From: a virus
Lineage: Duplodnaviria; Caudoviricetes
DNA: 59,586 nucleotides
Direction: 5' to 3' (one strand)
Virus record (IMG/VR): IMGVR_UViG_3300026536_000001
Coordinates: 1-59,586 of that record
The position numbers and the translations under genes were made by a program. The notes under the pieces are model-generated. The model did not search any database. It had not been told where the DNA came from and saw nothing but the letters and a program-made list of their open reading frames with translations. This document shows positions 3,183 through 59,295 of this stretch, one piece after another (the stretch's first letter is position 1; the number at the start of each line of letters is the position of its first letter).

Positions 3183-3346
3183 CTCGCCTTCGTCTCGTTT
3201 CGTCACAAAGCGTTCCACTTCGCATCGGATCTCGAATTCGTCTCGCAACAAACCACGGCACTACGCCTCGCCCCACTACGCTTCTCGGATTCGTCTCGCC
3301 TCGCAACACGCCACACCACATCGCAGCGAGACACGACGCGACTTCA
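3183..3346 (-). ncRNA. YG-NNN guide cassette, 3 units, all matching gene 3344-4315
   Basis: handles at 3183, 3231, 3284, 3337; decode to LFQSSFM, LKTGYLPY, LLNATIRD. Confidence 0.85.
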
Positions 3347-4315
3347 CTCCGCGGGAAAGATCAGTACTCCTAATCCGGCATCGAACCCGATTCCTTTCTC
3401 TCCAGTCACACTCGCCAACCACTCATCATTGCGGATGGTCTCATTGACCAAATTCTTTTTGGCCTCGGCATCCAGCTTCGTCCGCCGCATTAAAAAAGTC
3501 ATGAAACTCGACTGGAAGAGCGCACGCTTGACTTCTCTCCCCTTATTTTGCTTGGCGAGTTCATCCAATCCATCTTTCGCGATCGCGTCATAGTCGGCCG
3601 CGACCACGGTTCCGGTTTGAATCTCGCCGTTCGGTGGGATGACCGCCGCCGATCCGCTATTGGGTGATGGAGCCTTCGACCCTGCTCCGGTCCTCGTGGG
3701 TATCGGCGTCTTCCCAGCGGGCTTTCCTTTCCTCTCATACCCAAATACGTGAATCTTCTTCACACCTAGTAGTGTCCTCTCCCGTGTGGCATCTCCGCCT
3801 TCCGGAGTGAAGCCTGTCTTCAGCCGCTCGACATCGAACTTGGTTCCTTCCAGATATGGCAGATAGCCGGTCTTCAACAATTCATCCTTGAAGCCTTTAT
3901 CGGCCAGACTATGAGCGAATTTTGCCCAGGCGCAGTTCTCATAAATCTTGATCGGTTGGTGGTTGGGATCGCCAAACACGGTGTTGCCCTCCGCCCCGAG
4001 GGCCGCCCCCATATCCTCGGCCTCGCTGTCTTCGGGTTTGGCCAGCTTCCCTGGACGCAAAATATCGAGGGTATTCTTCCTGCCGAACCCTAAATGTTCC
4101 AAAGCGGGTTCGTCGTCGATCCTCTCCAACGTGTTGGGATCTAATTTGTACAGCTCTAACCGCACCATACAGGCCGGATCGGTTTGCTCTCCGGTTTGAC
4201 TGTTCGGCGGAAATTGATACACGATACAACTGGCTTTTCCGATCTCCCAGGTTCCTTCCTGAGCCCCGAATCCTCCTTTAACGGTATCTTTACTCGATAG
4301 ACTGATCTTTGGCAT
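3344..4315 (-). CDS. hypothetical replication-region protein (possibly ssDNA-binding)
   Basis: true start probably MPKISLSS (ATG 4315, SD AAGGAGAG); function inferred from context only. Confidence 0.65.
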   Translation of the reverse strand: MPKISLSSKDTVKGGFGAQEGTWEIGKASCIVYQFPPNSQTGEQTDPACMVRLELYKLDPNTLERIDDEPALEHLGFGRKNTLDILRPGKLAKPEDSEAEDMGAALGAEGNTVFGDPNHQPIKIYENCAWAKFAHSLADKGFKDELLKTGYLPYLEGTKFDVERLKTGFTPEGGDATRERTLLGVKKIHVFGYERKGKPAGKTPIPTRTGAGSKAPSPNSGSAAVIPPNGEIQTGTVVAADYDAIAKDGLDELAKQNKGREVKRALFQSSFMTFLMRRTKLDAEAKKNLVNETIRNDEWLASVTGEKGIGFDAGLGVLIFPAE

Positions 4316-6478: not shown

Positions 6479-6548
6479 GATCTCGTCTCACGACACGGCA
6501 CCTCACCGCGCCCCAACACACGACGCTTCGCGGCGATTCTCGTCTTCG
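6476..6548 (-). ncRNA. YG-NNN guide cassette (1 unit) matching helicase N-terminus
   Basis: decodes to LDGLRPHDFGF vs resident LDGLRPADLGF. Confidence 0.85.
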
Positions 6549-17713: not shown

Positions 17714-18109
17714 TCACACCGTCCTCGTTCGACTTACAGCAGGCGGATAAAGCCACGTCACTCCGTCAGGTTTCGATAAATCCATATCCAGATGAATAAA
17801 GCTGAAGCCAATACCAACCCTTCTGAAACCTAACGCGATGGCATTTTCGACGATCACAAATCTTGTGTGACTATCCCTCGCTGTGATGTCAACTGCAAGG
17901 CCGTTTTCGTGCGAGGAGGAATCGACTCCTCCGACTTCTCGATTGTGTTCGGGTGTGCGATATCCACTACTGATGAAGAGTGGAAAGCCGCATTTGGACC
18001 GCAGCTCGTCGAGGAGCTTTACGAAATCGAGATTCATCTTCGAGCCGCTTCCAGGCGCATCTGGACTTGAGAATTCATCCGGTTGGAAATAGCGTATGCC
18101 TTCCCACAT
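17714..18109 (-). CDS. peptidase M15A-family endolysin
   Basis: SSGYRTPEHN..SSHENGLAVDI..FIHLD. Confidence 0.9.
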   Translation of the reverse strand: MWEGIRYFQPDEFSSPDAPGSGSKMNLDFVKLLDELRSKCGFPLFISSGYRTPEHNREVGGVDSSSHENGLAVDITARDSHTRFVIVENAIALGFRRVGIGFSFIHLDMDLSKPDGVTWLYPPAVSRTRTV

Positions 18110-18164: not shown

Positions 18165-18242
18165 CTCGGCTTCACCCCAGAACGGCTCGAAACGGCCCAC
18201 ATCGGCCCACATCGGCTCAGCGCGAAACGACCCTCGGCTTCA
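18165..18242 (-). ncRNA. YG-NNN guide cassette (1 unit, 12 triplets) matching endolysin
   Basis: decodes to GFRSMGMGFSFG vs resident GFRRVGIGFSFI. Confidence 0.85.
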
Positions 18243-18274
18243 TCCCGTCCGGCCTCCGGTAAAATTCGCTTCCT

Positions 18275-21415: not shown

Positions 21416-21530
21416 AGCCGAGAGGCGAAGCGCCGCGTGCCGTCGTGGGACGTAGTGACGTGAAGCGCCGTGAGCCGCGCTGGCGTGTTGTGCCGTGACG
21501 TGAACCGCAGTGGGGTGAGACGAATTCGAG
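21413..21530 (+). ncRNA. YG-NNN guide (20 triplets) complementary to a terL homologue
   Basis: decodes to LPWFVGNARLGFVYPEHGFL vs resident LPWFTGSARLGYIYPEQGFL. Confidence 0.9.
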
Positions 21531-21542
21531 TCCTGACCTGCG

Positions 21543-23696
21543 ATGTACAGCGAAAAAGTCACACAAGCCAAGATCGCGTTCGCGTTGAGGACCGGCTTCT
21601 TGAAAACGGAGCCGGTCTTCCACACCCGCAGCGAGTGTGATGCCGCAGTCTCCCACCTGAAGTCCAACTGGGACGAAGACTCACAGACCTGGAAGCGTGA
21701 GTTAACTCGCGAAGAGATCGCGTTTATAAAAAACGAAAGGTTTCTCTGTCGCGTCAGTTATAATTATTGGAAAACGCGGTACTGCTGGATCAAGTCCCGT
21801 GAAGATAAGCCCATCCGTTACACTCCATGGGTTAGTCAAACAATTCTGACAGACATATTTTCCGAGCACGAGATCGAAGGCATCGCGATCGAGTTACAGG
21901 CACTTAAGGCTCGACAGCTCGGAGTCTCCCGCGAAGTCTCTCTGGCGCAGCTCCATAGAGTTCAGTTCTTCAGTCACATCAACGCCATGATGGCTTCCTC
22001 TGCTCCAGCAAAGACGGCGAAACTCGGCGATATGTTAGCCTTCACGTTGGGTTATCAGCCGCACTGGTTACTGCCTCGTTTCGCTTTCGGCCCCCGTGAG
22101 CAAGCCCAGCACTTCGGCGGGGAGTGGTTCGAGCTAGAGACAGGCTCCTCACTCACACTCCAGTCCGGATCTCAAGTCACTGGTATCGCCCGCGGCACAA
22201 CCCCTACCGTTATTCATATTAGCGAGCTTGCCGAGTTCGAGTACCAAGGTCTCGGCCCCGAAGAAGTCATCGACTCATCTTTATTCCGCGCAGTCCATCC
22301 CTCCGCTCGTGTCTTCATGGTTCTGGAATCCACCGCACTAGGCCAGTTCAATTGGTGGCACAAGAAGTGGCTCTCCTCCAAGTCCGGCTGGCCGACACGC
22401 CGCTCCCGCCTGCGTCCGGTCTTCCTTCCATGGTTTACCGGAAGTGCGCGTTTGGGCTATATATACCCAGAACAAGGATTTTTGGACCGCTCTCCCGTCC
22501 CCGCCAACTACTCTCCCGCACTCTGGGCTCTCGAACACGCCAAGCGAGCCGAAGATTACGTCAAGTCGAACGATACTCTGCGGGCGTACATGGGAAGCAA
22601 CTGGACGATGCCTCGCGAACAAATCTGGTTCTACGAAGTCGAGCGCCAGCAAGCCGTTAACGAAAATCGCTTGAATAAATTTTTTCAAGAGATGCCAAGT
22701 AGTGATGACGAGGCTTTTCAAAGTACGAACGTCTCGGTCTTCTCCACTGAAACCATCACCGCGCACCGCGACCGCACCCGCGCTCCACTCGGCGTCTACG
22801 GCTTGATCGGCCCGGATATGTCCCCCCGCACGGTCCTCTTCTCCCGCGCTCACATCGATCCCAACTCTAAACCGATTGTGATCGATTATCCGTGGGGCGC
22901 TCACCCGCACCAATACGAACTGGTCCCTCTACGCTGGGACGGTTACGCGACCGATGACGGTTTAGACAAACTCTACATTTGGGAGATGCCCGAAGACGGC
23001 CAGATCTACGGCCTCGGTGTGGACACCGCCGACGGTATAGGTAAGGACCGCTCAACCATAGAGGTATTAAGAAAAGGCTCTCCTCTTCAACGGGCGGGTC
23101 AGTGTGCGGAGTTCGCCTCGGATAAGATCAACGCTTTGGACTTGACCCCATACATGATGGCTTTGGGAGCTCTCTTCAGTGTCAAAGACACGGATGGGAA
23201 TCGTCGTCAGTGCCGTGCGGCGATTGAATGCCGGGGCAAGGGTGATCTCTCCCAATTGGGCATGAGAATCGATGGCTGGAGAAATTTTCACCCTTGGCAA
23301 CGTATTGATTCTAAAACCATTTCTCCCGACAAAGTAAGCAAGTTAGGGGTATTTACAAACGAATGGTTTCGTCAATCGATTCAAGAATATCTGGTGAAAT
23401 TCCTTCGCGATGAAGAGGTTGAAATTCTCTCGCCGTTCCTTGTGAGTGAAATGCAGTCCCTTGAGTCTCGTGAGGACGTGCAGAGCTTCCGCGCGACATA
23501 CGGCGGCCACGATGACAGAGTGATGTCGCTCGGTTTTATCCTCATTTCGTTATATCAGTACGAGCCCAATCGTCCTGTTGCTGCACTGACACAGACGAAG
23601 CAATCGCGGGGGCAAGTTCGATTTGAACGCAAATACGCTTCCTGGCGACCCAACGATCAGGAGCGCCTGACTACTTTAGATGACGCCAGCGTATGA
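21543..23696 (+). CDS. terL: terminase large subunit
   Basis: LKARQLGVS Walker A, HISE Walker B, LESTA, GVDTADG and HDDRVM RNase H-like motifs. Confidence 0.92.
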   Translation: MYSEKVTQAKIAFALRTGFLKTEPVFHTRSECDAAVSHLKSNWDEDSQTWKRELTREEIAFIKNERFLCRVSYNYWKTRYCWIKSREDKPIRYTPWVSQTILTDIFSEHEIEGIAIELQALKARQLGVSREVSLAQLHRVQFFSHINAMMASSAPAKTAKLGDMLAFTLGYQPHWLLPRFAFGPREQAQHFGGEWFELETGSSLTLQSGSQVTGIARGTTPTVIHISELAEFEYQGLGPEEVIDSSLFRAVHPSARVFMVLESTALGQFNWWHKKWLSSKSGWPTRRSRLRPVFLPWFTGSARLGYIYPEQGFLDRSPVPANYSPALWALEHAKRAEDYVKSNDTLRAYMGSNWTMPREQIWFYEVERQQAVNENRLNKFFQEMPSSDDEAFQSTNVSVFSTETITAHRDRTRAPLGVYGLIGPDMSPRTVLFSRAHIDPNSKPIVIDYPWGAHPHQYELVPLRWDGYATDDGLDKLYIWEMPEDGQIYGLGVDTADGIGKDRSTIEVLRKGSPLQRAGQCAEFASDKINALDLTPYMMALGALFSVKDTDGNRRQCRAAIECRGKGDLSQLGMRIDGWRNFHPWQRIDSKTISPDKVSKLGVFTNEWFRQSIQEYLVKFLRDEEVEILSPFLVSEMQSLESREDVQSFRATYGGHDDRVMSLGFILISLYQYEPNRPVAALTQTKQSRGQVRFERKYASWRPNDQERLTTLDDASV

Positions 23697-23917: not shown

Positions 23918-24035
23918 AGCCGAGGCTCGATTTGGAGCGTGTCGCGACGGGTTGAAGCGGGGTGAGACGAATCCGAGTAGCGATGTGTAGCGTAGCGAGG
24001 CGTCGTGGTTTGATCTGGCCTGCGGTGAAGCCGAG
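23915..24035 (+). ncRNA. YG-NNN guide cassette, 2 units (terL sense; portal antisense)
   Basis: decode to AIECRGKG and RAITDLYYIY. Confidence 0.9.
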
Positions 24036-24052
24036 TAGCGGAGGACTGAGGG

Positions 24053-24724: not shown

Positions 24725-26793
24725 GATCCGACACCGGTAATTTTTACTTGGCCCCACCGATACTCAACCAGGATGGCGAGACTCCCACTACTGACGAACT
24801 CCTCGGCTGGACAAAAGAGTTCCGTCAACAAGCGCAGTCATACCTAAGGCTGCAACCAGCGCACCCGTACATCCAAGATGGTCTCGACCTCATCAACGGA
24901 GACTTCGCTAAATCGACCGTCTCGACTCTCTCCAACGCCCGCACCGACTTGACCGTACGTAACGAAAAAGAACTGATCGCCGCTCAGACCAACCTCCGCA
25001 TCATCCCGGCCATCACCACCTCCATCGAAGCCTTCAAAGAGCAAGGCGTTTTATTAGATAAAAGTTGGATGTGGTGGCAGCAGAAAACCTTCGCCGATCG
25101 CGTGATCCGTCAAGCCTGGCAGAACGCCGTGGCTTTGGGCACCGGCTACTGTTCGATCGGCTACGACCCGGACTACTACTGTGCTGGTAAAGGCGAGATC
25201 GCCCTCCGTTCTCATGGCCCTCTCGATATCCTCCCGATCGGCCTCCCGCACGACCACAGTATCCAAAAGGCATATGCGGTCGCCATCAAAGTCCCCACGC
25301 CCTACCACCAAGTCATCGAAATGTTCCCGGACTTCCGCGATCAGATCCGCCCCACCACCGAGATGAAGGGCCGCGGCACCGTCATGGCCCAATCGGTCAA
25401 GTTCGCTTCGGCCGTCCTCAAACGTTTCGGTCCGACCGCGATTCAGGAACGCGAGCCGATGCCGTGGGCGATGACGGATTTATTTTACATTTATATCGAC
25501 GACCGCACCGTCAACCGCACCGGCAAAACCATCGCCATGGGCGACCCCCACACCTCCTGGGAGTACTTCGTCCCTTCTGTCGGCGATCTGATCGAGACCG
25601 GCCGCGACGACGAAGGCAAGTCCGTTTACAAACAAGCGACTCCGGAAGACTGCCGCTTCTATCCGAACCGCCGCCGGATCATCTGCACCGATAATTTAAT
25701 CCTCACTCCCGACCCGACTCTCCAGGTCAACCCGGCCTGGCACGGCAAGGTCCCCGTCGTTCAATTCCGCGCCGATGACTGGCCTTGGATGTTTCTCGGT
25801 TTCCCCCTCTCCAAAGCCGGAATGCTGCTGGAAAAAGCCAATACCGAGCTCCTGCGCGGCATCGTCGATATGATGAACGTGCGCCTCTCCCCACCGACCG
25901 GCTACGATCGTAACACCATGGCCCGCTCCCTAGCCGAAACCATCAATCTGCGCGTCCCCAACCAACGCCTCGGCCTCGATTACGGCCTGGGTGGCGACCA
26001 ATTCAAACCCCTCCTCCCGGTCGAGTTCCTGAACGTCCCCTCCAACATCCCGGAATTGATCACTCAAAACGAAGCCCGTCAGACGCACTACATGGGAGTG
26101 GCCGACGCTTCGGCCCTGACCCGTGCCCGCCAGCTCCCGGCCGGAGATTCCACCGACCGCTTATTAGAAGCCCTCGGTCCTCTGGTTAAAGATATGTCCC
26201 GGAACATGGAGCTCTCGGTCACCGGGATTGGCGAGATGTGGGTTCCGCTCGTGTTTCAGTGGTGGAAGGCGGGGAAGCGTTTCCAGATCTTTGGTGAAGA
26301 CGGACTCGTTGAAGAGGATATCGATTTCAACCCCGGTTCTCTGGTCCCTCAGGACGTTCTCTCTCTCCCCAAACACTCCTCCTACTTTGAACGCGCCCGG
26401 AAACATTGCGCTCATTTCCACTATGCGATCGAGCCGTACAGCCTGCACGAACTCAATTCGATGACACGGAAGATGGCCTTCCTCCAGCTTTCCCGCTCCG
26501 GCTTCCCGATTTCCTGGAAGACCCTAGCCCGAGTATGGGATGTCAAGAACTTCGACTTCGACCCCAAAGATACCGATCCGTCCAGCCCGAATTTCGGCAA
26601 GAGCCTCCAGGGAGAGTTCCCGATCTGGCTGGCCCAACAAGAGATTATGGCTCGAATCGCAATGGCCACGGGAGGCGGAGGCGGTAAAGGGAAAGGTCCT
26701 CAAGGACGTCCTCCTACGGGTCAGCAGCCGCCTTCTTTGGAGCAAAAAGGCGGGTTTGGTGGGCGCTCCACCATCCGCGAATCCAGGAGGTAG
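24721..26793 (+). CDS. portal protein
   Basis: 690 aa after terL; LGTGY..GYD, HGKVPVV motifs typical of podophage portals. Confidence 0.8.
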   Translation: MRSDTGNFYLAPPILNQDGETPTTDELLGWTKEFRQQAQSYLRLQPAHPYIQDGLDLINGDFAKSTVSTLSNARTDLTVRNEKELIAAQTNLRIIPAITTSIEAFKEQGVLLDKSWMWWQQKTFADRVIRQAWQNAVALGTGYCSIGYDPDYYCAGKGEIALRSHGPLDILPIGLPHDHSIQKAYAVAIKVPTPYHQVIEMFPDFRDQIRPTTEMKGRGTVMAQSVKFASAVLKRFGPTAIQEREPMPWAMTDLFYIYIDDRTVNRTGKTIAMGDPHTSWEYFVPSVGDLIETGRDDEGKSVYKQATPEDCRFYPNRRRIICTDNLILTPDPTLQVNPAWHGKVPVVQFRADDWPWMFLGFPLSKAGMLLEKANTELLRGIVDMMNVRLSPPTGYDRNTMARSLAETINLRVPNQRLGLDYGLGGDQFKPLLPVEFLNVPSNIPELITQNEARQTHYMGVADASALTRARQLPAGDSTDRLLEALGPLVKDMSRNMELSVTGIGEMWVPLVFQWWKAGKRFQIFGEDGLVEEDIDFNPGSLVPQDVLSLPKHSSYFERARKHCAHFHYAIEPYSLHELNSMTRKMAFLQLSRSGFPISWKTLARVWDVKNFDFDPKDTDPSSPNFGKSLQGEFPIWLAQQEIMARIAMATGGGGGKGKGPQGRPPTGQQPPSLEQKGGFGGRSTIRESRR

Positions 26794-27516: not shown

Positions 27517-27661
27517 GGCTGGTTTGATAAAATAAGAATCATTGAAAATTTCCCCTTGACATTCCCATCTCCTCAATCCTACCTTTTCCCATTGTACGAG
27601 TTGGGAACTTGAAGGATCGTTCTTAGAGAGAACATCGGCCCTTTAAGAACGGTATCCGCAG

Positions 27662-27708
27662 AAAGCCCATTCCTGTGAGTCGCGTGCTCACCGGGATGGG
27701 CTTTTTTA
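27662..27708 (+). terminator. Rho-independent terminator-like hairpin
   Basis: AAAGCCCAT(T)CC..GGATGGGCTTTTTT. Confidence 0.7.
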
Positions 27709-27977
27709 TTTCCCATTTCGTAGCGATCCCCAGTACCGATAGCCCACCGGCTGTCGGGGAAAGGAGGCTCCCATGATCGGTCATTTTGAGTACGCCGAGC
27801 GCGGGCGTCGTCGAGGGCGTCGGCGCGGCCGGAAGCGGTAGGTTCCTGTCCGTGTCAGTTGTCCGGGACCGTTCTTCCCGGACTGTTGTGAGGGAGAGGG
27901 GCCCGGTTCCCACCCATCAGGTTCCAGTCTCCTCTCCTTCGTTCATTCTTCTTTATTCTTTTTCGCTGGAGTATTCG

Positions 27978-28085
27978 ATGAGGCACACGGGGATGACTAA
28001 AAGCGGCTTGAAGCGGGGACGCGGTCGCTCGAAAATCCGCACGCCCATGTACACCCGAATCCGCGGTAGAGGACGTAAACGCTAA
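27978..28085 (+). CDS. 35-aa Arg/Lys-rich basic peptide
   Basis: SD GGAG; MRHTGMTKSGLKRGRGRSKIRTPMYTRIRGRGRKR. Confidence 0.55.
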   Translation: MRHTGMTKSGLKRGRGRSKIRTPMYTRIRGRGRKR

Positions 28086-28086
28086 C

Positions 28087-28395
28087 ATGGCGGTCGAGAC
28101 CCCATCCACGCCGGACCCTCAATCCGGAGCGTATGGTGGTGTGCGGCAAATGACCGGTGACGATGGTATGGCCGGTGCGTCTCCATCTCCAGTCCAAGCC
28201 GATCCGGCACAGATGCTCGCCGGAGTCACGTCTCAACTTCGACAAGCCGACCAAGCCGTTAGCGAGATTGCCCGTGCTTTTCCGCAGGCTGCTGCCGAGG
28301 CCAGACGCGCGCGTTCGGCACTACGTTCGCTGCTTCAGAAAGTTGTCAGCGAACCCGGAGGAGGCGCTCCTGCCGCGCCTGTAGGTGAGGTATGA
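28087..28395 (+). CDS. hypothetical protein
   Basis: SD AGAGG, head-gene region. Confidence 0.6.
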   Translation: MAVETPSTPDPQSGAYGGVRQMTGDDGMAGASPSPVQADPAQMLAGVTSQLRQADQAVSEIARAFPQAAAEARRARSALRSLLQKVVSEPGGGAPAAPVGEV

Positions 28396-28442
28396 AAGGT
28401 TTGAGTCGCGAGCGGCCCCATCGGTCAGGGCCGCCCTTGGAA

Positions 28443-28578
28443 CACGATCTCACATCGCGACACGACAACTCACGGCGTTTCACGACAACGCGCGCCACGA
28501 CACCGCACGACGATACGCTTCTCGGATTCGTCTCGCATCAACTCATCTCGCCACGACCCGGGTCGGCCCTCGTATTCA
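28443..28578 (-). ncRNA. YG-NNN guide cassette, 2 units, antisense to the late operon
   Basis: one unit decodes to IDELGFERADREYF vs scaffold IDELGLEGADKDYF. Confidence 0.85.
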
Positions 28579-28598
28579 GTATCGGGATCGCGATCCAC

Positions 28599-28627
28599 AT
28601 TGTATCCCAACGCGCCGGTCTCAACAA
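28599..28627 (-). promoter_or_regulatory. putative antisense promoter TTGTTG-N17-TACAAT for guide cassette
   Basis: located ~20 nt upstream of first handle on minus strand. Confidence 0.45.
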
Positions 28628-28675
28628 CCCTAAATCCGCTGGTTATCAACCAAGAACGGATGGAGGACTGAGGTT

Positions 28676-29659
28676 ATGCCTGTAGACACCAAAAGAGTTC
28701 AAGAATTGATCGATGAGTTAGGTCTCGAAGGCGCGGACAAAGACTATTTCGCCCGCGTTCTCACCACCAATGAGAAGGCGGGCGTTGCTTTTACCGGGCA
28801 GAGAGAGAGGCACGATAGGTTTACGCAGAAGACTCAAGAACTCTCTCAGAAAGAGAAAGAGTTGGAACAACGTGCCAATCAGCGCGACTTGGAGTTAGCG
28901 CAACAGTTAAACGCGGCGGAGGATCGCATCCGCAAAATCATGGCCGACTATGAGACTTCCGAGATCTCTCGTACTAAAGCAGAGACACTTCTTCGCCGTG
29001 TCAAAGAGATTTACAATTTGAGTGACGAAGACATACCGAAGCTCTCCGAGCCTCCCAAGCCCAAAGACACTCCTCCTCTCGACATCGACAAGAAGTTCAG
29101 CGAGTTCAAGGACACACTCCTCAAGGAACTGGCTCCCAACTTCCGCGCCCTCCCTCGAATCAACGTCATTCAGGCAGAGATTTTTGAGAGGCACCGCGAG
29201 CTTACCGGCAAGCGTCTCACCCAGCGCGAAATGGAAGAACTGATGGCCGAATCCATGAAAGACAACGGTCCGACTCTCATGGAAGCTTGGCGCGAAAAAT
29301 ACAAGATCGCCGATATCGAGAAGAAGAAGGAACGCGAGGAGTGGTCCAAAGAGGACCGGCAGAAGTGGGAAGACGAACAGAAAGCCAAGAACAGCGAAGA
29401 AGCGATGCGGCAAGTCCGCTCCACTCCCGACGGCCGCACTCAACACCTCTCTCCGGTCTTCCGCGAATACAAACGGCACGAAGACGGCACCTTCGCTTCT
29501 CAGCAAGCTCCGGATAAGGACAAGAACCGTCCGGCCGACAGAGTACCGGCAGTGCAGAATGGACAGAAGTTGAGCGGAGCCGAACGAGCGGCGAAGAGCT
29601 TCATCGAAAGAAGACAGGCGGGAGTGCCTCTGGGGAAAGAGGCTGTTGGGAAAACCTAG
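28676..29659 (+). CDS. capsid scaffolding protein
   Basis: charged coiled coil (FTQKTQELSQ) upstream of MCP. Confidence 0.7.
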   Translation: MPVDTKRVQELIDELGLEGADKDYFARVLTTNEKAGVAFTGQRERHDRFTQKTQELSQKEKELEQRANQRDLELAQQLNAAEDRIRKIMADYETSEISRTKAETLLRRVKEIYNLSDEDIPKLSEPPKPKDTPPLDIDKKFSEFKDTLLKELAPNFRALPRINVIQAEIFERHRELTGKRLTQREMEELMAESMKDNGPTLMEAWREKYKIADIEKKKEREEWSKEDRQKWEDEQKAKNSEEAMRQVRSTPDGRTQHLSPVFREYKRHEDGTFASQQAPDKDKNRPADRVPAVQNGQKLSGAERAAKSFIERRQAGVPLGKEAVGKT

Positions 29660-45914: not shown

Positions 45915-47921
45915 ATGGGATTTTTAACCAACCTCGTCCGTGAAAAAGCCAAGAAGCAATTCGACGAAACGATCAGCGAAGGTGATAAGCTCCGATTTTT
46001 GATCGAGAACCATCCCGATCCAGAGATGAAGGGCAGATCCGCCGAAGCCCTCGTCAAACATTCCGGATTATCCGCCAAAGAAGGCCAGAATCTCCTCGCC
46101 CTCATGACCCACTTATCGAGTTCGATAGGACAAGGAGGCGAACAGCAGGTATCCGACACCGGAGGACCGCCGATGCTGTCGAAAGTGGCCGGTCCGGAAG
46201 CATCCACTACTGAGGAACTCCCTCCTGTCGCGCCTCCAGCCGGTCCATCTGGAGGTGGTTTCGTCCCGCTCCCTTCAACCACCTATGGCCAGGCCACACC
46301 CCGACCTATACCTGAAGGCGCTCGACCAACAGGCGATTGGCTCGCCGGAGAGTACGAGAGCGCCAACCCCGGCGGTGGACAGGTCCCTCTCCAACCTCGT
46401 GGCGATCCGGGATTGGAACGGATGGCCACCCCTACAGCCACTCCTCCACGCGAAAAAGGACCGGGATTCTTCGGGAGTCTTGGCCGGATTGGATTAGAGA
46501 CTCTAGCCGGTGGTCTCTCTCAAGGGCTCACCGTTCGCGAACAACTCCAACGCGAAGCCGAGACTCGTCAGGCCGAAACCCGGAGGAAGGAACTCGAACA
46601 GCAGGCTGGACTACGGCGAGAGGAGATGGGCTATGAATCTCAACTCCGTACTCAAGAGGCTGTCAATCCTCAAGTCCGTCAAGCCAGAATCGACGATGCG
46701 GTCAACAGTTATGTCCGGCAGCGGCAGGCAGAAGAGAAGCTCAACGATATTCAAGCCGGTAAGTTGAAGGTCAAGTACAAAAATTACATCCAGGAAGAGA
46801 TGGGTAAACTCCGACCTGGAGAATCCGATGATGATGCGTACCGCCGGGCCACCATGAAGATCAACGCCGAAACGGGTAAGGCGGCCTTCTACCCTCCGCC
46901 CACACCTCTCCGCGGCGACCGCTTTGCCGTCCCCGATGACCCAGCAAATCGACAAGGGGGGTGGCATTGGATGGAACGGGTGGGTGCGACAGCCGTCCCG
47001 GTTATCGATGAAACGACGGGCAGGCCATTGGCGGCTCCCATCCCAGCGTCCGAGAAACCACCGCTGGCCCCAGCGAATGTCCGGAGTGCGTTGTGGGTCC
47101 AGTCGCATCTGGCCGATCCCGATCCCCAAGTCCGTGCGGCAGCCAAACAATTGAACGATCGGGCCAACGCGGCGATTCAAGCTGCAGCGACTCAAGCCTT
47201 AGACCCGGAAACCTTACGCTTTTTAGCCGAACGTTCCTTGATTACCGGCAACGATCCCACTTTCGGCTTCGGTACAGCCGCGTCCAAGAACCGGACACAG
47301 TTTTTTATGGCTCAGGCCCAACTCGCTAGGGAGTCCGGCAACACCACAGCGGAGCTGATTGCCAATCAGAACATGGCGAAGGCAGCCCGGCAGGATCTCC
47401 CACGGATGCAGTTGCTCCTATCCCAAACCAGAGTGAACGAGGGAGCGGCCGAAGGGTATTTCAACCTTCTCACTAAAGAAGCGGGCCCTCGGATGGATGC
47501 GGAATCGTGGTCACTCGCTGTACCAGCGTTGGACTCTTGGATACGGACAGGAGTGGTGAAAGCAACAGGGAATCCCGCCGTCAACAACTATTTAACAGGT
47601 CTGACGGAAGCCCTAACCGAGTACGCCAAAGTTGTTGCTGGCCAGACTACAGGAGCAGCAGTAACCCAGGAGGCCAACCGGCAGGCACAGGGACTCATTG
47701 ACCGCGGATTATCCACGGAAAGCGTCAACGATTGGGTAGAGCATATTGCCAAGCCCTTCATGAAGAAGCGGGAGACCGAATATCAGGAGGAGATCAACAA
47801 TCTCCGGCAAATTAGCGGACAAGTGGGTGGCGTTGGACAGGGACGCGCTCCAGTTACGCCTGGTGGAGATGGGACCGCACCCAAGACGGCTGAAGAACTA
47901 CTTAAAGCTCTGGGCCGGTAG
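45915..47921 (+). CDS. internal virion/ejection protein
   Basis: 668 aa, position. Confidence 0.55.
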   Translation: MGFLTNLVREKAKKQFDETISEGDKLRFLIENHPDPEMKGRSAEALVKHSGLSAKEGQNLLALMTHLSSSIGQGGEQQVSDTGGPPMLSKVAGPEASTTEELPPVAPPAGPSGGGFVPLPSTTYGQATPRPIPEGARPTGDWLAGEYESANPGGGQVPLQPRGDPGLERMATPTATPPREKGPGFFGSLGRIGLETLAGGLSQGLTVREQLQREAETRQAETRRKELEQQAGLRREEMGYESQLRTQEAVNPQVRQARIDDAVNSYVRQRQAEEKLNDIQAGKLKVKYKNYIQEEMGKLRPGESDDDAYRRATMKINAETGKAAFYPPPTPLRGDRFAVPDDPANRQGGWHWMERVGATAVPVIDETTGRPLAAPIPASEKPPLAPANVRSALWVQSHLADPDPQVRAAAKQLNDRANAAIQAAATQALDPETLRFLAERSLITGNDPTFGFGTAASKNRTQFFMAQAQLARESGNTTAELIANQNMAKAARQDLPRMQLLLSQTRVNEGAAEGYFNLLTKEAGPRMDAESWSLAVPALDSWIRTGVVKATGNPAVNNYLTGLTEALTEYAKVVAGQTTGAAVTQEANRQAQGLIDRGLSTESVNDWVEHIAKPFMKKRETEYQEEINNLRQISGQVGGVGQGRAPVTPGGDGTAPKTAEELLKALGR

Positions 47922-50405: not shown

Positions 50406-50640
50406 CTCGACTTCATCTCACCACATTCCGGCTCGCCGCAAAACTCGGCTTCGTTTCAGCTCGTCGCAAACCACTACACACCAAGACGATTCTCGAATTC
50501 GTCTCGCTTCGTGACAACTCGTAACACCGCAATGCGATTCTCGGATTCGTCTCGTTCCAGATCGTCTCGCCTCACGTCGCCACAAATCACCACTCGGCTT
50601 CGTCTCGTCTCGACTCGGCTCACATCGCCGCTCGGCTTCA
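50406..50640 (-). ncRNA. YG-NNN guide cassette, 5 units
   Basis: handles 50406, 50444, 50492, 50540, 50593, 50631. Confidence 0.85.
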
Positions 50641-51589: not shown

Positions 51590-51662
51590 CTCGCCTTCGT
51601 CTCAGACCACCTCGCAACGCGGCACCTCGCGGCACGGCACGTCACCGCACAACTCGGCTTCA
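51590..51662 (-). ncRNA. YG-NNN guide cassette (1 unit) matching gene 51200-51550
   Basis: LTLNGLGGVR(N) vs resident CTMNGIQGVKN. Confidence 0.8.
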
Positions 51663-53102
51663 TCCCTTCGACCATCTACTCATGATTTTTGACTCCGCTT
51701 CGACAGGTACACGAAGATATGACTCCGATGAGTCTCTGTCAAGCATAACATTCATCATGGTCGCGGCAGTCATGTCCCCGACAACCTCGGCCCACTCTTC
51801 TTCGACTTCAGACAGCAGTTCGTCGTGGATACTTACGAGCGGTTGCACCCAGACATTCCTCTTTCGGAGGTCTTCGTGGACTTCCTCCATCTCTCCCATC
51901 GTCAGCCGCATCCAATCCGCACCCGTACCCTGGACCGGCATGTTGGCGGCCTGTCTCAACCCTGCCGCTCGAATATGGGGTAGCGCCGACTGGACTTCAG
52001 GCACCTTCCTAACACGCCCGAATAGGGTCCACACGACACCGTACCGCCGCGCCCGATAGAACTGGTCCTCGATATAACCCTTGACTCCCGGATACCACTC
52101 ATTGAACCAGCGTTCAATAAACCGTTCGCACCATGCCACGTCGATCTCCGGAGGGAGAGGGAGATTGGCCGTCGCGTAGGTTACACACATCATGTCGAAC
52201 AGTCCTGGCCCGCCCAGACCATAGAACACCCCGAAATTCACATTGCGGCTCGGTGTCCGCTGCGTGATGTAATCTGGCGTCTGGGTATTGAACGCCAATT
52301 TGGCCGTCTCGTTGTGGGGGTCAATGCCGAGTTTGAAGATCCGGATCAGGTTCGCGTCCTGGCTGTAATGCGACCCGATTCGCATCTCCTCTTGACTGAA
52401 ATCCGCCGAAACTAAACGGGTTCCCGGACTGGCAACAAACCCCTTGCGAAGTTCGCGTCCCAGTGCCGTACGGGAAGGGATGTTCTGGAGGTTGGGATTC
52501 TTCGTTGCCAACCGGCCGGTCTCTGTCCGCGTATCTAATACTTCCGCATGGACCCGATCGGTCGCTCCATAGTGTTTTAATCCGCACCAGCAGCTCCCCG
52601 CCGGATGGTGCCGCGCTAATTTGGGTAGCGCATCGCAATAGGTACTTTTAAGTTTCATTCTCTCGCGATAATCCAACACTTTCTGAATCACCGGATGCTC
52701 GCGCTTCAACCCTTCCAACTGCTTCTTCCCCGTCGATACCCGGCTGCCAGAAGGAGTCATCTTCAACGGCTTTCCCTGACCGACTTTCAGTACATCAAAA
52801 AGCAGGGTGGCCAGTTGATCCGACGATCCCACATTCATGGGTAGATAATCGTCATCGCCAATGAGATTGGAACGGCTGATGAACTCTTCTAACCGGTCCG
52901 GAGGGATCACCTCACAGATCTCTTCACGCAAGTAACGGGCTTCCCGTTCCAGGCGGATACCGAGATCGGCGAAGTAGCCTTTATCGATCGCAATACCATA
53001 TTGCATCATCCGGCGGACCATCGGAACGGGTAACAAATCGAGCTTTCTCACGTTTTCGAGGTCGGGACGGTTGGTTACTTGGATATCACCATACAGGCTC
53101 AT
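51660..53102 (-). CDS. polA: family A DNA polymerase, polymerase domain
   Basis: TETGRLA..NPNLQNIP, ADFSQEE (motif A), RNVNFGVFYG (B), IHDEL (C). Confidence 0.92.
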   Translation of the reverse strand: MSLYGDIQVTNRPDLENVRKLDLLPVPMVRRMMQYGIAIDKGYFADLGIRLEREARYLREEICEVIPPDRLEEFISRSNLIGDDDYLPMNVGSSDQLATLLFDVLKVGQGKPLKMTPSGSRVSTGKKQLEGLKREHPVIQKVLDYRERMKLKSTYCDALPKLARHHPAGSCWCGLKHYGATDRVHAEVLDTRTETGRLATKNPNLQNIPSRTALGRELRKGFVASPGTRLVSADFSQEEMRIGSHYSQDANLIRIFKLGIDPHNETAKLAFNTQTPDYITQRTPSRNVNFGVFYGLGGPGLFDMMCVTYATANLPLPPEIDVAWCERFIERWFNEWYPGVKGYIEDQFYRARRYGVVWTLFGRVRKVPEVQSALPHIRAAGLRQAANMPVQGTGADWMRLTMGEMEEVHEDLRKRNVWVQPLVSIHDELLSEVEEEWAEVVGDMTAATMMNVMLDRDSSESYLRVPVEAESKIMSRWSKG

Positions 53103-53332
53103 ATCCGCCGGTTTGGCTCATACCCACCGATCTCCGGCCATAACTGACCTATCCAATACTTGAAGCCTTCAGAGTCGATCAGGCCCGCCCGCCACAACTG
53201 GAGGAGAACGAGTTTACGGTTTGTGTTCACCGCAAGCCATTGACGATATAACGGCTGGGCAATCGGAACGGATGGGATCGCCATCGCCGCCACGGCTCCT
53301 CCGCAACACTTGAAGAAATCTCTTCGGTTCAT
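53099..53332 (-). CDS. small protein with Tat-like N-terminus (MNRRDFFK)
   Basis: twin-arginine-like motif. Confidence 0.55.
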   Translation of the reverse strand: MNRRDFFKCCGGAVAAMAIPSVPIAQPLYRQWLAVNTNRKLVLLQLWRAGLIDSEGFKYWIGQLWPEIGGYEPNRRI

Positions 53333-53673
53333 CTTTCGAAATCGGCCATCATTTCAACGGCTCGATCGGCAGCCGTCACTAGTTGATGAAGTAAGGGCAA
53401 CAGCACTGAGGAAAGAGCGACGATGGAATTCAGAGGATCTTTCCCCTTGACCCGCGCCATCAAATCCCCGGCGATCGCCTGAGTCTCTTCCAACGCACCC
53501 GGTCTGGCGATACGGTGGCAAATCGCGCTGAGTGGTATCTGAACTTGTTGGGCAAGCTTCGCGATCTCATTGCGCCGGTCGATGGTGGCTTCCAGACCAG
53601 ACTTGCCACTGGTTCTGGCCTGACTGGCTAGCTCCCTGACGGCTTCTTGAATCGCTCTCTCCTTATCGGTCAT
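53329..53673 (-). CDS. hypothetical protein
   Basis: SD GAGGAGG before MTDKER. Confidence 0.6.
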   Translation of the reverse strand: MTDKERAIQEAVRELASQARTSGKSGLEATIDRRNEIAKLAQQVQIPLSAICHRIARPGALEETQAIAGDLMARVKGKDPLNSIVALSSVLLPLLHQLVTAADRAVEMMADFER

Positions 53674-54394
53674 GATCCTCCTCACGAACCCCGAAATAGC
53701 CGAGCCGCTCCCGTTCTTCCTCAAGCGCGACCGCTAATTGCAGAGTCACATCCGCGTCTCTTACAGCGTATTCGACGGCCTCCTCTTCCGGCACCCAGCC
53801 AATCCCCTTCTCCGGGAGATCCAAATCCAACCCCCACTGCTGTTCAATCTCCTTTAACCGGCTCTCTATGTCGTAATCCGGACTCTTCATCCCAAATTTA
53901 AAAATGCGTTCCAAAGTCCTGTAGGCGATACTGGGTTTCTCGACCACCTTGACGGCTCCGCGGCGGGTTTCCTTCCACTCCAGATCCGGAGTCAAGGCCG
54001 CTTCCATCAGCAGCTCCGACAGTCTTTCCAACAGCTTTTCCCTGGAGGCGGCCCCCACGAGATCCGACCAATCTTGCATCCGGACACCGAACAGGCGGTA
54101 GCCGAGAACCTTGAGACTCTGAGGCAACCCCAGATGATATGACTCCTGAAGTGTGTCTCGATAACGTCCATGATATCGAACGCCGATGAGATCCATAACC
54201 GGCAGGTCGGCCGGAGCGTGATGGAAGACCAAAATAGCACCGCTGTCGAGCCTTGAATTGAGCAAATCCACCAAAACGGCCACTGCCTCCGTGTCGGACA
54301 TTCGAACCAAGATTCCTGTTCCCGGCCGCAGCGACACTTGGATACTGAACGGCGCCCCGGCGTGACTTTCGGTATCTATGCCGATCAAGTCCAT
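53663..54394 (-). CDS. 3'-5' proofreading exonuclease domain (split from polA)
   Basis: IGIDTE (ExoI), FHHAPADL (ExoII), YAVRDA (ExoIII). Confidence 0.85.
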   Translation of the reverse strand: MDLIGIDTESHAGAPFSIQVSLRPGTGILVRMSDTEAVAVLVDLLNSRLDSGAILVFHHAPADLPVMDLIGVRYHGRYRDTLQESYHLGLPQSLKVLGYRLFGVRMQDWSDLVGAASREKLLERLSELLMEAALTPDLEWKETRRGAVKVVEKPSIAYRTLERIFKFGMKSPDYDIESRLKEIEQQWGLDLDLPEKGIGWVPEEEAVEYAVRDADVTLQLAVALEEERERLGYFGVREEDHDR

Positions 54395-54861
54395 ATCTTC
54401 CTGTTACGGATACGACTCACGGTGCTCTGATGGACACTGAACCGTCCGGCAATCTCTAGCTGCGTCCCGACGGCCCGTCGTATCGCTTCGACGACCTTCG
54501 GCCCGTGTACCCAGCTATAGCGATGCGGCTTAACGAGGACGCCGACCCTTTTCTTCTTAGCGGCATCCCGCATGTTATCCGCGTCCGATCCTGAAAACAG
54601 ATGGGCCGGATTGCAGCAAGGCGGATTATCGCAGTGGTGGCAGATCAGGCGTGATGTGTCCATACCCGTGATAGAAGCGACAACCCGGTGGGCGTAGAAG
54701 GAAACCACATGCTTAGGCTCGATAGCCACGATAAACCGGCCGTAACCCGCAGCCGTTCTCGGACCCATCCATTCCCAGCAATCGTTTTTGTCTCCAGTGC
54801 GAATCGTCGAATGGAGACGGTGAAGTTGATCACCACTGAACTCCGGGATAGGTTTAATCAT
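54385..54861 (-). CDS. HNH homing endonuclease
   Basis: CWEWMG..YAHRV..CHHCDNPPCCNPAHL..DNMRD. Confidence 0.92.
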   Translation of the reverse strand: MIKPIPEFSGDQLHRLHSTIRTGDKNDCWEWMGPRTAAGYGRFIVAIEPKHVVSFYAHRVVASITGMDTSRLICHHCDNPPCCNPAHLFSGSDADNMRDAAKKKRVGVLVKPHRYSWVHGPKVVEAIRRAVGTQLEIAGRFSVHQSTVSRIRNRKIWT

Positions 54862-56199: not shown

Positions 56200-56460
56200 C
56201 TATTTCGGGAGTAGATTTTCCGGGAAGTCGATCTTCCGTATCTTACTGTTCATCCACATCTTAGCTACCTCGAATGGTAGGCGGATGTTGAGATAGACCG
56301 CCCCTTTCAGGGTTGTGTTTACTCCATCTGCTGTTTTTGGATCGATCTCCCCGTTCAATTGAAGATTCAAAACTTCTTCGTAAACATCACGATGGTTCTG
56401 AACCGTCTTCAACGGCATGAATCGTTTCTTCTTATCATCGGCTTTGCTTTCGTCAGGCAT
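56200..56460 (-). CDS. small protein directly downstream of the main guide array (candidate accessory)
   Basis: SD AGGAG; 86 aa. Confidence 0.65.
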   Translation of the reverse strand: MPDESKADDKKKRFMPLKTVQNHRDVYEEVLNLQLNGEIDPKTADGVNTTLKGAVYLNIRLPFEVAKMWMNSKIRKIDFPENLLPK

Positions 56461-56487: not shown

Positions 56488-57231
56488 CTCGGCTTCGTCT
56501 CAGATCACAGCACTCCAGCGCAAATCGATACTCGAATTCGTCTCGTCTCGACACGCGGCAACGCTCAACGAATCACCCCGGCCCTCGGCTTCATCTCAAC
56601 ACGTTACGTTGTGTCACACCTCGGCTTCACGTCGTCTCGCTTCGTATCGCGACACCGCTCTGCGCCTCTTGTATTCATCCCAGCACACTTCAGCGCAACC
56701 GCACAGCACGTCTCGGATTCACATCGCCTCACTGCAAGACGCAACACAACACATCGCCTCTCGACTTCGCCTCAGCTCATGTCACCGCGCATCACGACAG
56801 ATCGACTCTCGGCTTCGATTCACAACAAGCTCGACTCCGTTCATCGCGGATCGTCTCTCGGATTCATCGCAGCTCAACGCGCTTCACACCAACTCACGCC
56901 ACCACGCGACAACTCTCGGATTCACATCGGCGCACACCAGCGCAACACGTATCTCGGATTCACCTCACCACGACACTCGTCGCTACGCTTCACAACACAA
57001 CTCGAATTCGCCACAACTCACTTCGAAACAACGCACCACGCCGCGCGACACGTCTCGAATTCGTCTCACAACACTGCAACACACACCATCACGTCACACG
57101 TCGCAACTCGGATTCGTCTCGGTTCGTTTACGTATCAGGGCGTCCCCTATTCTCAATACTCGAATTCGTCTCGCGCCACACCAGCGCAACTCGCGTCGAA
57201 ACGCGGCACCTCGCTACGTCTCTCGTCTTCG
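56488..57231 (-). ncRNA. main YG-NNN guide array, 15 units between 16 handles
   Basis: handle spacings 43,53,36,48,44,48,48,49,58,38,48,53,53,52,63 (11 of 15 = 5n+3). Confidence 0.9.
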
Positions 57232-57235
57232 AGCT

Positions 57236-57937
57236 TTAGCTCGCTTCTTCAATGGTAGCGATATACTTTCCTCCGCCCGCTGATCTCTCCCCACCGTAGC
57301 CGTGCGTCCCTCCATAATTCATCAGCGTACTCAGATCCTTGATACTCACGGAGGTTCCCAGGATCTTCAATCTGAATTTGATCATGGCGGGCCGCACCAC
57401 TTCAAAGGACTTCAACGCATTGATGGGTTCTCCTCTCGGTCCTCTGGCGTGGACTGGCTTGTCCAACACTTCGTCGGCCGCAGTAACCGGAGTCCCGTCT
57501 GGCCGCAGGATCGGAATATACTCGTTGGCCTCATCCAAATATGCCCCGTTCACTACCCTTGTTGCAAAGCTCCGTTCACCTTTTATTTTCCCTATAAATT
57601 GCGCTGAGATCACCCTCGCACAATCCTTCAAATGCGCCCGTATCGTATCTTCCCGCACCACCAGCACCTCGTTCTTTTTCTGAAACACTCTTAACGGAAT
57701 GGCCGCTGTTGTTGGATTGGTCAGCGTATCGAGAACCTCCTCGGTGATCTCATCAATACTCTTTCCTCCTGCTGGCATCACGTCCGGAGCTCTACTGTCC
57801 AACCAGGGTCCGACCAGATTCCCATTGGCAGGCACAGACCCGCACAAGTCCCGGATGAAGTCCCACCTCACGTTATAAACGGTCCAGATCGAATCGTTTC
57901 TCTCTTTCGTTTTCGTTTCTTTCTCGGTAATACTCAT
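57236..57937 (-). CDS. stand-alone RAMP/Cas7-like RNA-binding protein (VIPR-like effector)
   Basis: N-terminal beta strand plus LCGSVP, TIRAHLKDCA helix, C-terminal G-rich loop YGGTHGYGGERSAGGGKY; abuts array; start MSITEK with SD AGGAG. Confidence 0.8.
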   Translation of the reverse strand: MSITEKETKTKERNDSIWTVYNVRWDFIRDLCGSVPANGNLVGPWLDSRAPDVMPAGGKSIDEITEEVLDTLTNPTTAAIPLRVFQKKNEVLVVREDTIRAHLKDCARVISAQFIGKIKGERSFATRVVNGAYLDEANEYIPILRPDGTPVTAADEVLDKPVHARGPRGEPINALKSFEVVRPAMIKFRLKILGTSVSIKDLSTLMNYGGTHGYGGERSAGGGKYIATIEEAS

Positions 57938-58997: not shown

Positions 58998-59295
58998 CTC
59001 GGCTTCGTCTCGCTACAACTCGCGTCGGCACACTTCTCGGCTTCGTCTCGTCTCGAAACACTGCGACTCGTTGCGCTACGGGTCGTCTCTCGGATTCACC
59101 TCACGCCAGCACGAATCGACACATCTCACCACACTACTCGGATTCACCCCAACACGTCTCGTCACAACGCACCACAGCACAACACGGACCGACACTCGGA
59201 TTCACCTCACAGCAAGTCGTAACACAACACGCCGCAACGGTTCTCGACTTCACCCCACCACGCTCCACTCCACATCACGTCGCTTCTCGACTTCA
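58998..59295 (-). ncRNA. YG-NNN guide cassette, 6 units
   Basis: handle spacings 38,53,48,58,48,43 (all 5n+3). Confidence 0.88.

Follow-up and report, generated by a model that had tools for sequence, protein, structure and literature searches.

A candidate VIPR guide for an ImmA/IrrE-type motif in the five-base arrays of a soil phage

Between two genes of a soil phage lies a tract of short repeating units, and the question that it raises is what the variable letters of those units specify. The phage is represented by a complete virus record with terminal repeats (IMGVR_UViG_3300026536_000001), and its 59,586 bases, taken whole, are the window analysed here. A preliminary description had singled out one unit, at 56857-56924, as a guide whose decoded letters spell the signature of ImmA/IrrE metallopeptidases, and had proposed both a non-self target and a route to naming the host. 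The answer developed below is that the unit is probably a VIPR guide with a non-canonical repeat, directed at the motif of ImmA/IrrE-type regulators, an assignment drawn from sequence comparison.

VIPR is a CRISPR-like silencer that was first described in 2026; its loci are phage-encoded and consist of a lone RAMP protein (Vipr) and one accessory gene (vap), and its vrRNAs are tandem GGY/NN units (10.64898/2026.04.26.720920). It is the NN letters that pair, in NNx steps, with double-stranded DNA at sites on either strand, the skipped base falls 'overwhelmingly' at the codon wobble position, and guide function has been shown experimentally for the class (10.64898/2026.04.26.720920). Satellites are natural targets, and so are prophage lysis-lysogeny regulators and other VIPR systems; the published sets have zero self matches at 80% or more of the read letters (10.64898/2026.04.26.720920). 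Variant repeats of the forms NNNGG, YNNNG and NNNNG are in print beside Vipr-like folds (10.64898/2026.04.26.720920), as are the further fixed trinucleotides GAC/NN, CAC/NN, WGT/NN and TGH/NN (10.64898/2026.10.21.760802). In the SUSP1 complex one protomer covers each repeat, burying three fixed bases and presenting two, and one target base is flipped out (10.64898/2026.04.26.720927). By the text of these papers, the class, its code and its non-canonical repeats are already in print.

The vipr-like gene and its phage

The features around the unit, together with a second and a third array, are as follows.

56200..56460, minus strand: partner gene, an 86-aa helical hairpin and vap-like accessory, conserved in relatives
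56488..57230, minus strand: main array of about 15 units, between the partner gene and the vipr-like gene
57236..57937, minus strand: vipr-like gene, a lone Cas7/Csm3-like RAMP; the open reading frame extends to 58066, with the start placed at M44
58998..59295, minus strand: second array, 7 units, upstream of the ERCC4-nuclease gene
50406..50640, minus strand: third array, 5-6 units

The M44 start of the vipr-like gene was chosen by alignment with its relatives, which number 452 proteins at E <= 0.001 in a word-indexed search and 337 representatives of 50% identity clusters in an exhaustive one. The protein has no sequence match in Pfam, PHROG or the PDB. Its AlphaFold model (pLDDT 83, pTM 0.76) finds Csm3, type VII Cas7 and Cas7-11 as top Foldseek matches (E 9e-7, probability 1.0), and VIA-align gives Z scores of 11.7, 11.5 and 11.4 against the three, while 32 sequences of the family have an invariant glycine-rich loop in their C-terminal part. 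As modelled, the gene product is a lone small RAMP with an RRM core, G-loop and thumb and without a second RRM, which is how a Vipr protein is recognised. Sequence similarity between SUSP1 Vipr and this family is not significant: hhalign of the 32-sequence profile against the SUSP1 ORF 28474-29061 gave a probability of 0.69 and an E value of 0.083, in a collinear alignment that brings the G-loops together, and tblastn against 50,697 phage records returned a single weak match, which was not SUSP1. The SUSP1 record itself shows ORFs 28031-28471 and 28474-29061 (the latter 195 aa) with GGYNN tracts to either side, at 27623-27966 and 29169-29231, on the strand of the genes.

The partner gene directly follows the vipr-like gene in most related loci; its fold has no clear match and it belongs to no PHROG family. 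A Pfam scan of 30 ORFs found no Cas10, Cas5 or small subunit, and no other cas genes lie nearby. The arrangement is that of a minimal VIPR locus, namely a vipr gene with one accessory gene, no other cas genes and no CRISPR array. The hallmarks of CRISPR-Cas type III (Cas10, Cas5, a small subunit and a repeat-spacer array) are missing, and the array period is 5 bases; Tandem Repeats Finder likewise detected no CRISPR-like repeat array.

The neighbours of the vipr-like gene are the 86-aa helical protein and the ERCC4 nuclease, UDG and polymerase genes. The phage record recurs in many soil metagenome runs, with no RNA run among those listed for it, and the main array is identical in contigs of four of them. 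A complete related phage of 60,892 bases, located by its polymerase (56% identical), has neither a vipr-like gene nor arrays, and a search with the RAMP protein for close relatives of the phage found none. Rfam and tRNA scans of the phage DNA gave no match. None of the 10 large ORFs in the presumed structural block (18306-50017) has a Pfam family, and a PHROG scan of 8 of the 10 placed one in tail-fibre families and one in a family of unknown function. The label 'terL', given earlier to gene 45915-47921, found no backing in either Pfam or PHROG. The phage is a very divergent soil phage. As a separate observation, its family A DNA polymerase seems to be split into a polymerase-domain ORF (51660-53102) and a 3'-5' exonuclease ORF (53663-54394) with small ORFs between them, and an HNH/His-Me endonuclease-like ORF (54385-54861) lies just upstream of the split polymerase (region 51660-54861).

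Array architecture and the letters that are read

Read on the C-rich strand, each unit begins with CTCGR and MTTCR, continues as a run of NNNC[A/G] pentamers and ends in a closing triplet, so that unit length follows 8+5n with n from 3 to 20. The unit at 56857-56924 conforms to this plan, and the coordinates first given for it proved correct.

56857..56924, minus strand: vrRNA-like unit, consisting of junction repeat, 10 pentamers, closing triplet and next repeat
56857-56861: CTCGG
56862-56866: repeat pentamer ATTCA
56867-56911: nine variable NNNC[A/G] pentamers
56912-56914: closing triplet
56915-56924: next repeat

The architecture recurs at 13 intergenic sites of the genome, about 45 units in all, with the G-rich strand of the arrays forming the sense strand of the neighbour genes in every case except the array at 28448-28570. 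This array has its C-rich strand on the plus strand within a plus-strand gene block, is the only one opposed to its neighbours, and overlaps the called ORF 28392-28685. Several arrays stop 2-8 bases ahead of the next start codon (6481-6535, 58998-59010 and 21526-21542), and because no space is left for a dedicated ribosome-binding site, that role may fall to the junction repeat as well.

The same type of array was recovered in two further viral contigs by searching for the repeat together with the rhythm, and one protein family adjoins the array in all three genomes, the window included. Clustered NNNC[A/G] runs lie beside the vipr-like gene, in the sense of the gene, in 44 of 50 viral loci (a set that includes a few duplicates or near-identical pairs) and, in a metagenome set with many short contigs, in 60 of 80 loci; no locus of either set has them on the opposite strand. 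All three MAG loci have arrays beside the gene, with a different junction repeat and the five-base rhythm kept; in a Phycisphaerales MAG (L031, 4650-4889) the junction differs and the phase shift between units is 2 bases rather than 3. Guides are shared between lineages only among near-identical phages, and the arrays of phages 76-85% identical cannot be aligned. An exact search of IMG/VR for the 15-base repeat gave 25 single matches without arrays, which were put down to chance, and Fourier tests for a 5-base period proved insensitive because the phase shifts at every junction.

Four or more tandem five-base units with fixed and variable letters define a VIPR array, and arrays of that kind are present here. 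The fixed letters are Y-G and not GGY, so the repeat is a non-canonical variant, comparable with the non-canonical VIPR arrays in which five-base units with other fixed letters stand beside Vipr-like folds; the exact pattern of Y-G, NN and a G-biased letter is absent from the non-canonical repeats named in the text of the VIPR papers. Type II VIPR (Escherichia phage SUSP1 and a Pseudomonas fulva prophage) shares with this phage the lone small RAMP with one accessory gene, five-base repeat arrays that flank the genes with the guide on the gene strand, and, as predicted for this phage, NNx targets with a wobble skip in rival mobile elements and other VIPR systems. It differs in having GGY where this phage has Y-G plus a G-biased letter, and in vrRNAs of about 100 nt with a structured tail, in contrast to the short units found here (3-20 steps) with their 10-base repeat junctions and 3-base phase shift. 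Unlike type II VIPR, this phage carries its arrays at 13 genome sites. Cas7 of class 1 CRISPR (Csm3/Cmr4 and type VII Cas7) has the same RAMP fold, with one protomer for each fixed guide step, whereas this phage lacks Cas5, Cas6, Cas10 and Cas11 as well as CRISPR repeats and acquired spacers, and its step is 5 bases with 2 read as against 6 bases with 5 read.

The letters that pair can be approached from composition. On the C-rich strand the fourth letter of the pentamer is always C and the fifth always A or G (100% for both); among the pentamers of relatives, letters 2 and 3 are close to uniform, and C makes up 47% at letter 1. This distribution, with letter 1 biased and letters 4-5 fixed, and the analogy with GGY/NN point to letters 2-3 as the read pair, and we infer that in the Y-G variant letter 1 is skipped. 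In the searches that follow, letters 2-3 of each pentamer were accordingly read, letter 1 was skipped, and targets were sought in NNx steps.

Applied to the genome of the phage itself, this reading found sites at 80% or more of the read letters for 7 of the 22 long units, and for five of these no more than one of 400 shuffles scored as high.

Unit 21530 (20-pentamer unit, 21426..21535, plus strand): 33/40 at 22425-22484; best of 400 shuffles, 27
Unit 3231 (one of three units, 3188..3340, minus strand): 16/18 at 3851-3877, in the adjacent gene; best shuffle, 15
Unit 18165 (12 pentamers, 18165..18245, minus strand): 20/24 at 17796-17831, in the adjacent gene; best shuffle, 19
Unit 23977 (one of two units, 23928..24040, plus strand): 16/18 at 23219-23245; 1 of 400 shuffles as good
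Unit 24035 (one of two units, 23928..24040, plus strand): 17/20 at 25465-25494; 1 of 400 shuffles as good

The five match at 82-89% of their read letters, two of them perfectly in all non-repeat units (at the site of unit 23977, all 8), and each adjoins the gene that it matches; the 20-pentamer unit, for example, lies just upstream of its gene, 21543-23696. At three of the five sites the match is in sense orientation, and the two letters read in each step fall on the first and second codon positions. Agreement between the skipped letter and the self target is 2/8, 3/11, 3/9, 2/8 and 4/19, which is the random level. In the related phage that lacks VIPR, the homologue of the gene matched by the 20-step unit is itself matched at 34/40 (L309, 15944-16003), and the peptide read in the frame of this unit is identical to the resident protein segment at 14 of 19 residues. 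Neither the contiguous reading (3 of 5 letters) nor the collinear reading (gapped, both strands) gave a self target clearly above shuffles.

Self matches beyond shuffles, combined with skipped letters that agree at random, argue that the one-base-skip rule and its register hold in this phage, and in silico its guides obey the NNx rule, the wobble base of the codon being the one skipped. The near or full matches of several guides to adjacent genes of their own genome set the phage apart from the published VIPR sets, which lack self matches at 80% or above, and the phage may therefore use the system differently. The self-matching guides may serve self-regulation or the exclusion of rival alleles. 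The text of the VIPR papers contains neither of these uses, the latter in co-infection, nor guides to own adjacent genes, and likewise neither a Y-G repeat with 10-base junctions nor an array spread over 13 sites.

Predicted targets of the main array

For the unit at 56857-56924, a script that takes letters 1-3 of each pentamer reproduced the 30-mer of the preliminary description, and its second frame reads RLRFTLAHE plus CT, which agrees with the hallmark motif of ImmA/IrrE (Peptidase_M78) genes. If letter 1 is the skipped base, reading covers just 20 of the 30 letters, so the BLASTn search of the contiguous 30-mer that had been suggested as a check is the wrong test. The ten dinucleotides that are read supply the first two bases of each codon for R L R F/L T L A H/Q E/D L, the 20-letter reading leaving F and L, H and Q, and E and D indistinguishable, and the motif sits in exactly the frame in which letter 1 is the wobble base. 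Given the array's own triplet usage, the probability that one window spells RLRFTLAHE is about 6e-11. In a survey of 614 distinct units, which come from some 130 related loci and hold 13,947 decoded letters, this match stands alone, and no ImmA-like unit was found in the arrays of other lineages.

The target is non-self. No gene of this family is encoded by the phage (PF06114 has 0 matches in the whole 59,586-base record), and the resident matches are as weak as first described: the contiguous reading reaches 21/30 at 47263, within the range of shuffles (maximum 22), and the gapped reading 15/20 at 47264-47293, where 41 of 60 shuffles were as good. What stood of the preliminary interpretation is thus the guide-like element, the ImmA motif and the non-self target; its contiguous reading of 30 letters and its hope of naming the host did not.

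ImmA/IrrE-type regulators occur in prophages, ICEs and defence modules. Candidate target loci were fetched by IUPAC back-translation of the 10-residue peptide, which is encoded at no fewer than 120 sites in contigs drawn from one genome per species and at 21 sites in IMG/VR viral contigs, giving 141 loci and 1.03 Mb. Every peptide site listed lies in a ...RLRFTLAHELGH/AH/SH... context. The best match of the unit to each locus, by read letters, is distributed as follows.

20 of 20 letters: 33 loci
19 of 20 letters: 43 loci
18 of 20 letters: 30 loci
17 of 20 letters: 14 loci
16 of 20 letters: 19 loci
15 of 20 letters: 2 loci

The match reaches at least 16/20 in 139 of the 141 loci, a level that is partly built in because the loci were fetched by the peptide itself; shuffled unit orders searched against the same 1.03 Mb reached at most 18/20, once in 200 trials. 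Perfect sites occur in 26 of the 120 genome loci fetched and in 7 of the 21 viral contigs, and across these 33 loci the skipped letter agrees in 1-6 of 9 cases. All three target genes checked encode proteins of 344-358 aa with an XRE-type N-terminal HTH and a PF06114 Peptidase_M78 domain, scoring 58-78 bits against a cut-off of 22, and the other 138 loci were assigned to the family by the ...RLRFTLAHELGH... context. The matched genes resemble the ImmR/ImmA and DdrO/IrrE pairs in carrying an XRE-type HTH and Peptidase_M78, with the difference that the three checked are single fused proteins. Judged by its sequence, the ten-step run corresponds to the segment that leads into the HEXXH zinc site of such HTH-plus-Peptidase_M78 regulators.

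The records with named perfect sites include Sphingobium, Mesorhizobium, Planctomycetaceae and Gemmatimonadota, and further ones Bacteroidaceae, Leptospira, Faecalibacterium and Ignavibacteriota. A motif present in so many phyla cannot name the host. When all decoded units were compared with the 1 Mb of ImmA-bearing loci by blastn-short, one extra match of 21/22 appeared in an unrelated membrane methyltransferase-like ORF and was judged to be chance.

A second unit of the main array bears on the earlier proposal that this array also targets host defence or prophage genes.

57159..57221, minus strand: main-array unit with 11 read dinucleotides, matching F[AS]TRxVNGxY, a conserved stretch of other phages' vipr genes

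Its best match is 19/22; 13 of 126 vipr loci reach at least 17, as against 1 of 630 shuffle-locus pairs. The match to the phage's own vipr gene is 16/22 only, and since the genes of other phages are matched better than its own, the unit is likely to be an anti-VIPR guide. The proposal is borne out in that the main array, with one ImmA-type and one vipr-type unit, appears to hold guides to other mobile elements, which are non-self guides of the published kinds. Lysis-lysogeny regulators and other VIPR systems being among the natural targets of VIPR, both units would fit the published biology. The words 'ImmA' and 'metallopeptidase' are absent from the October 2026 paper (10.64898/2026.10.21.760802), as far as its text goes, and no Peptidase_M78 target appears in the text of the VIPR papers; their supplementary tables may already list such targets or the Y-G form of the repeat.

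Mode of action and competing explanations

The mode of action is likely to be the binding and silencing of double-stranded DNA, after the VIPR papers. The array would be transcribed on the minus strand with its neighbour genes, yielding a guide RNA that runs in five-base steps of Y-G-N-N-(G-biased N). By analogy with SUSP1, one Cas7-like Vipr protomer would occupy each step, burying the fixed letters and presenting the two variable ones, which would pair with double-stranded DNA in NNx steps with the skip usually at the wobble base, and binding would silence transcription. The phage may in this way shut down ImmA/IrrE-type regulators of rival elements that are already resident. A single hard-wired guide could fit many members of a family, since the skip takes up synonymous differences among them. 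A broader scheme, with guides addressed to protein motifs and not to individual sequences, can be put forward only tentatively: the ImmA unit, aimed at an invariant run ahead of HEXXH, would silence the HTH-ImmA/IrrE regulators of many unrelated prophages, its sister unit would silence rival vipr genes, and the scattered units would act in self-regulation or in allele exclusion during co-infection.

Other explanations differ in which part of this account they give up. It is unlikely that the unit is a VIPR guide whose ImmA reading is a coincidence, the real target lying elsewhere or the guide having decayed. One unit in 614 carries the reading and no other lineage repeats it, a C-rich composition favours codons for R, L, F, T, A and H, and a famous motif can turn up by chance when many decoded peptides are scanned. 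Against coincidence stand the low probability of the reading in a single window, the fit of all ten steps to the motif, a frame that is the one predicted by the code (a chance of 1 in 3), and a strand and target class that agree with published VIPR biology.

A contiguous 30-base antisense RNA that pairs through all three variable letters with an mRNA target is very improbable. It would account for the first letters of the unit, which also yield the right codons for F, H and E, and for the best natural gene, which shares a 21-base exact run and 27/30 letters with the 30-mer (29/30 with G-U pairs), a score that is uninformative under the skip rule. Letter 1, however, agrees in only 14 of 55 cases, or about 25%, at the five internally validated sites, and as poorly as noted above at the 33 perfect loci; self matches under a contiguous reading are not clearly above shuffles, and the published structure has a one-base skip (10.64898/2026.04.26.720927). 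Least probable of all, we think, is that the tracts act in cis, as protein-binding tracts in phage mRNAs for coating, stability or translation control, with uninformative variable letters. The placement of arrays at 13 intergenic sites, abutting start codons, and the compositional bias of letter 1 would suit such a role, but the variable letters match specific genes far beyond shuffles, and guide function is published for this class (10.64898/2026.04.26.720920).

On the preferred reading, that of a guide directed at the ImmA/IrrE-type motif, these findings leave the known mechanism of VIPR unchanged and bear on its range. Natural VIPR targets are known for few clades, and here the pairing register of a non-canonical repeat could be read from the phage's own genome. 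The soil phage offers a candidate anti-VIPR guide and, unlike the published sets, guides that match its own neighbour genes. HTH-Peptidase_M78 regulators, as the class of predicted targets, agree with the bias towards lysis-lysogeny switches that has been reported for VIPR, and skipping the wobble base can make a fixed guide a family-wide weapon.
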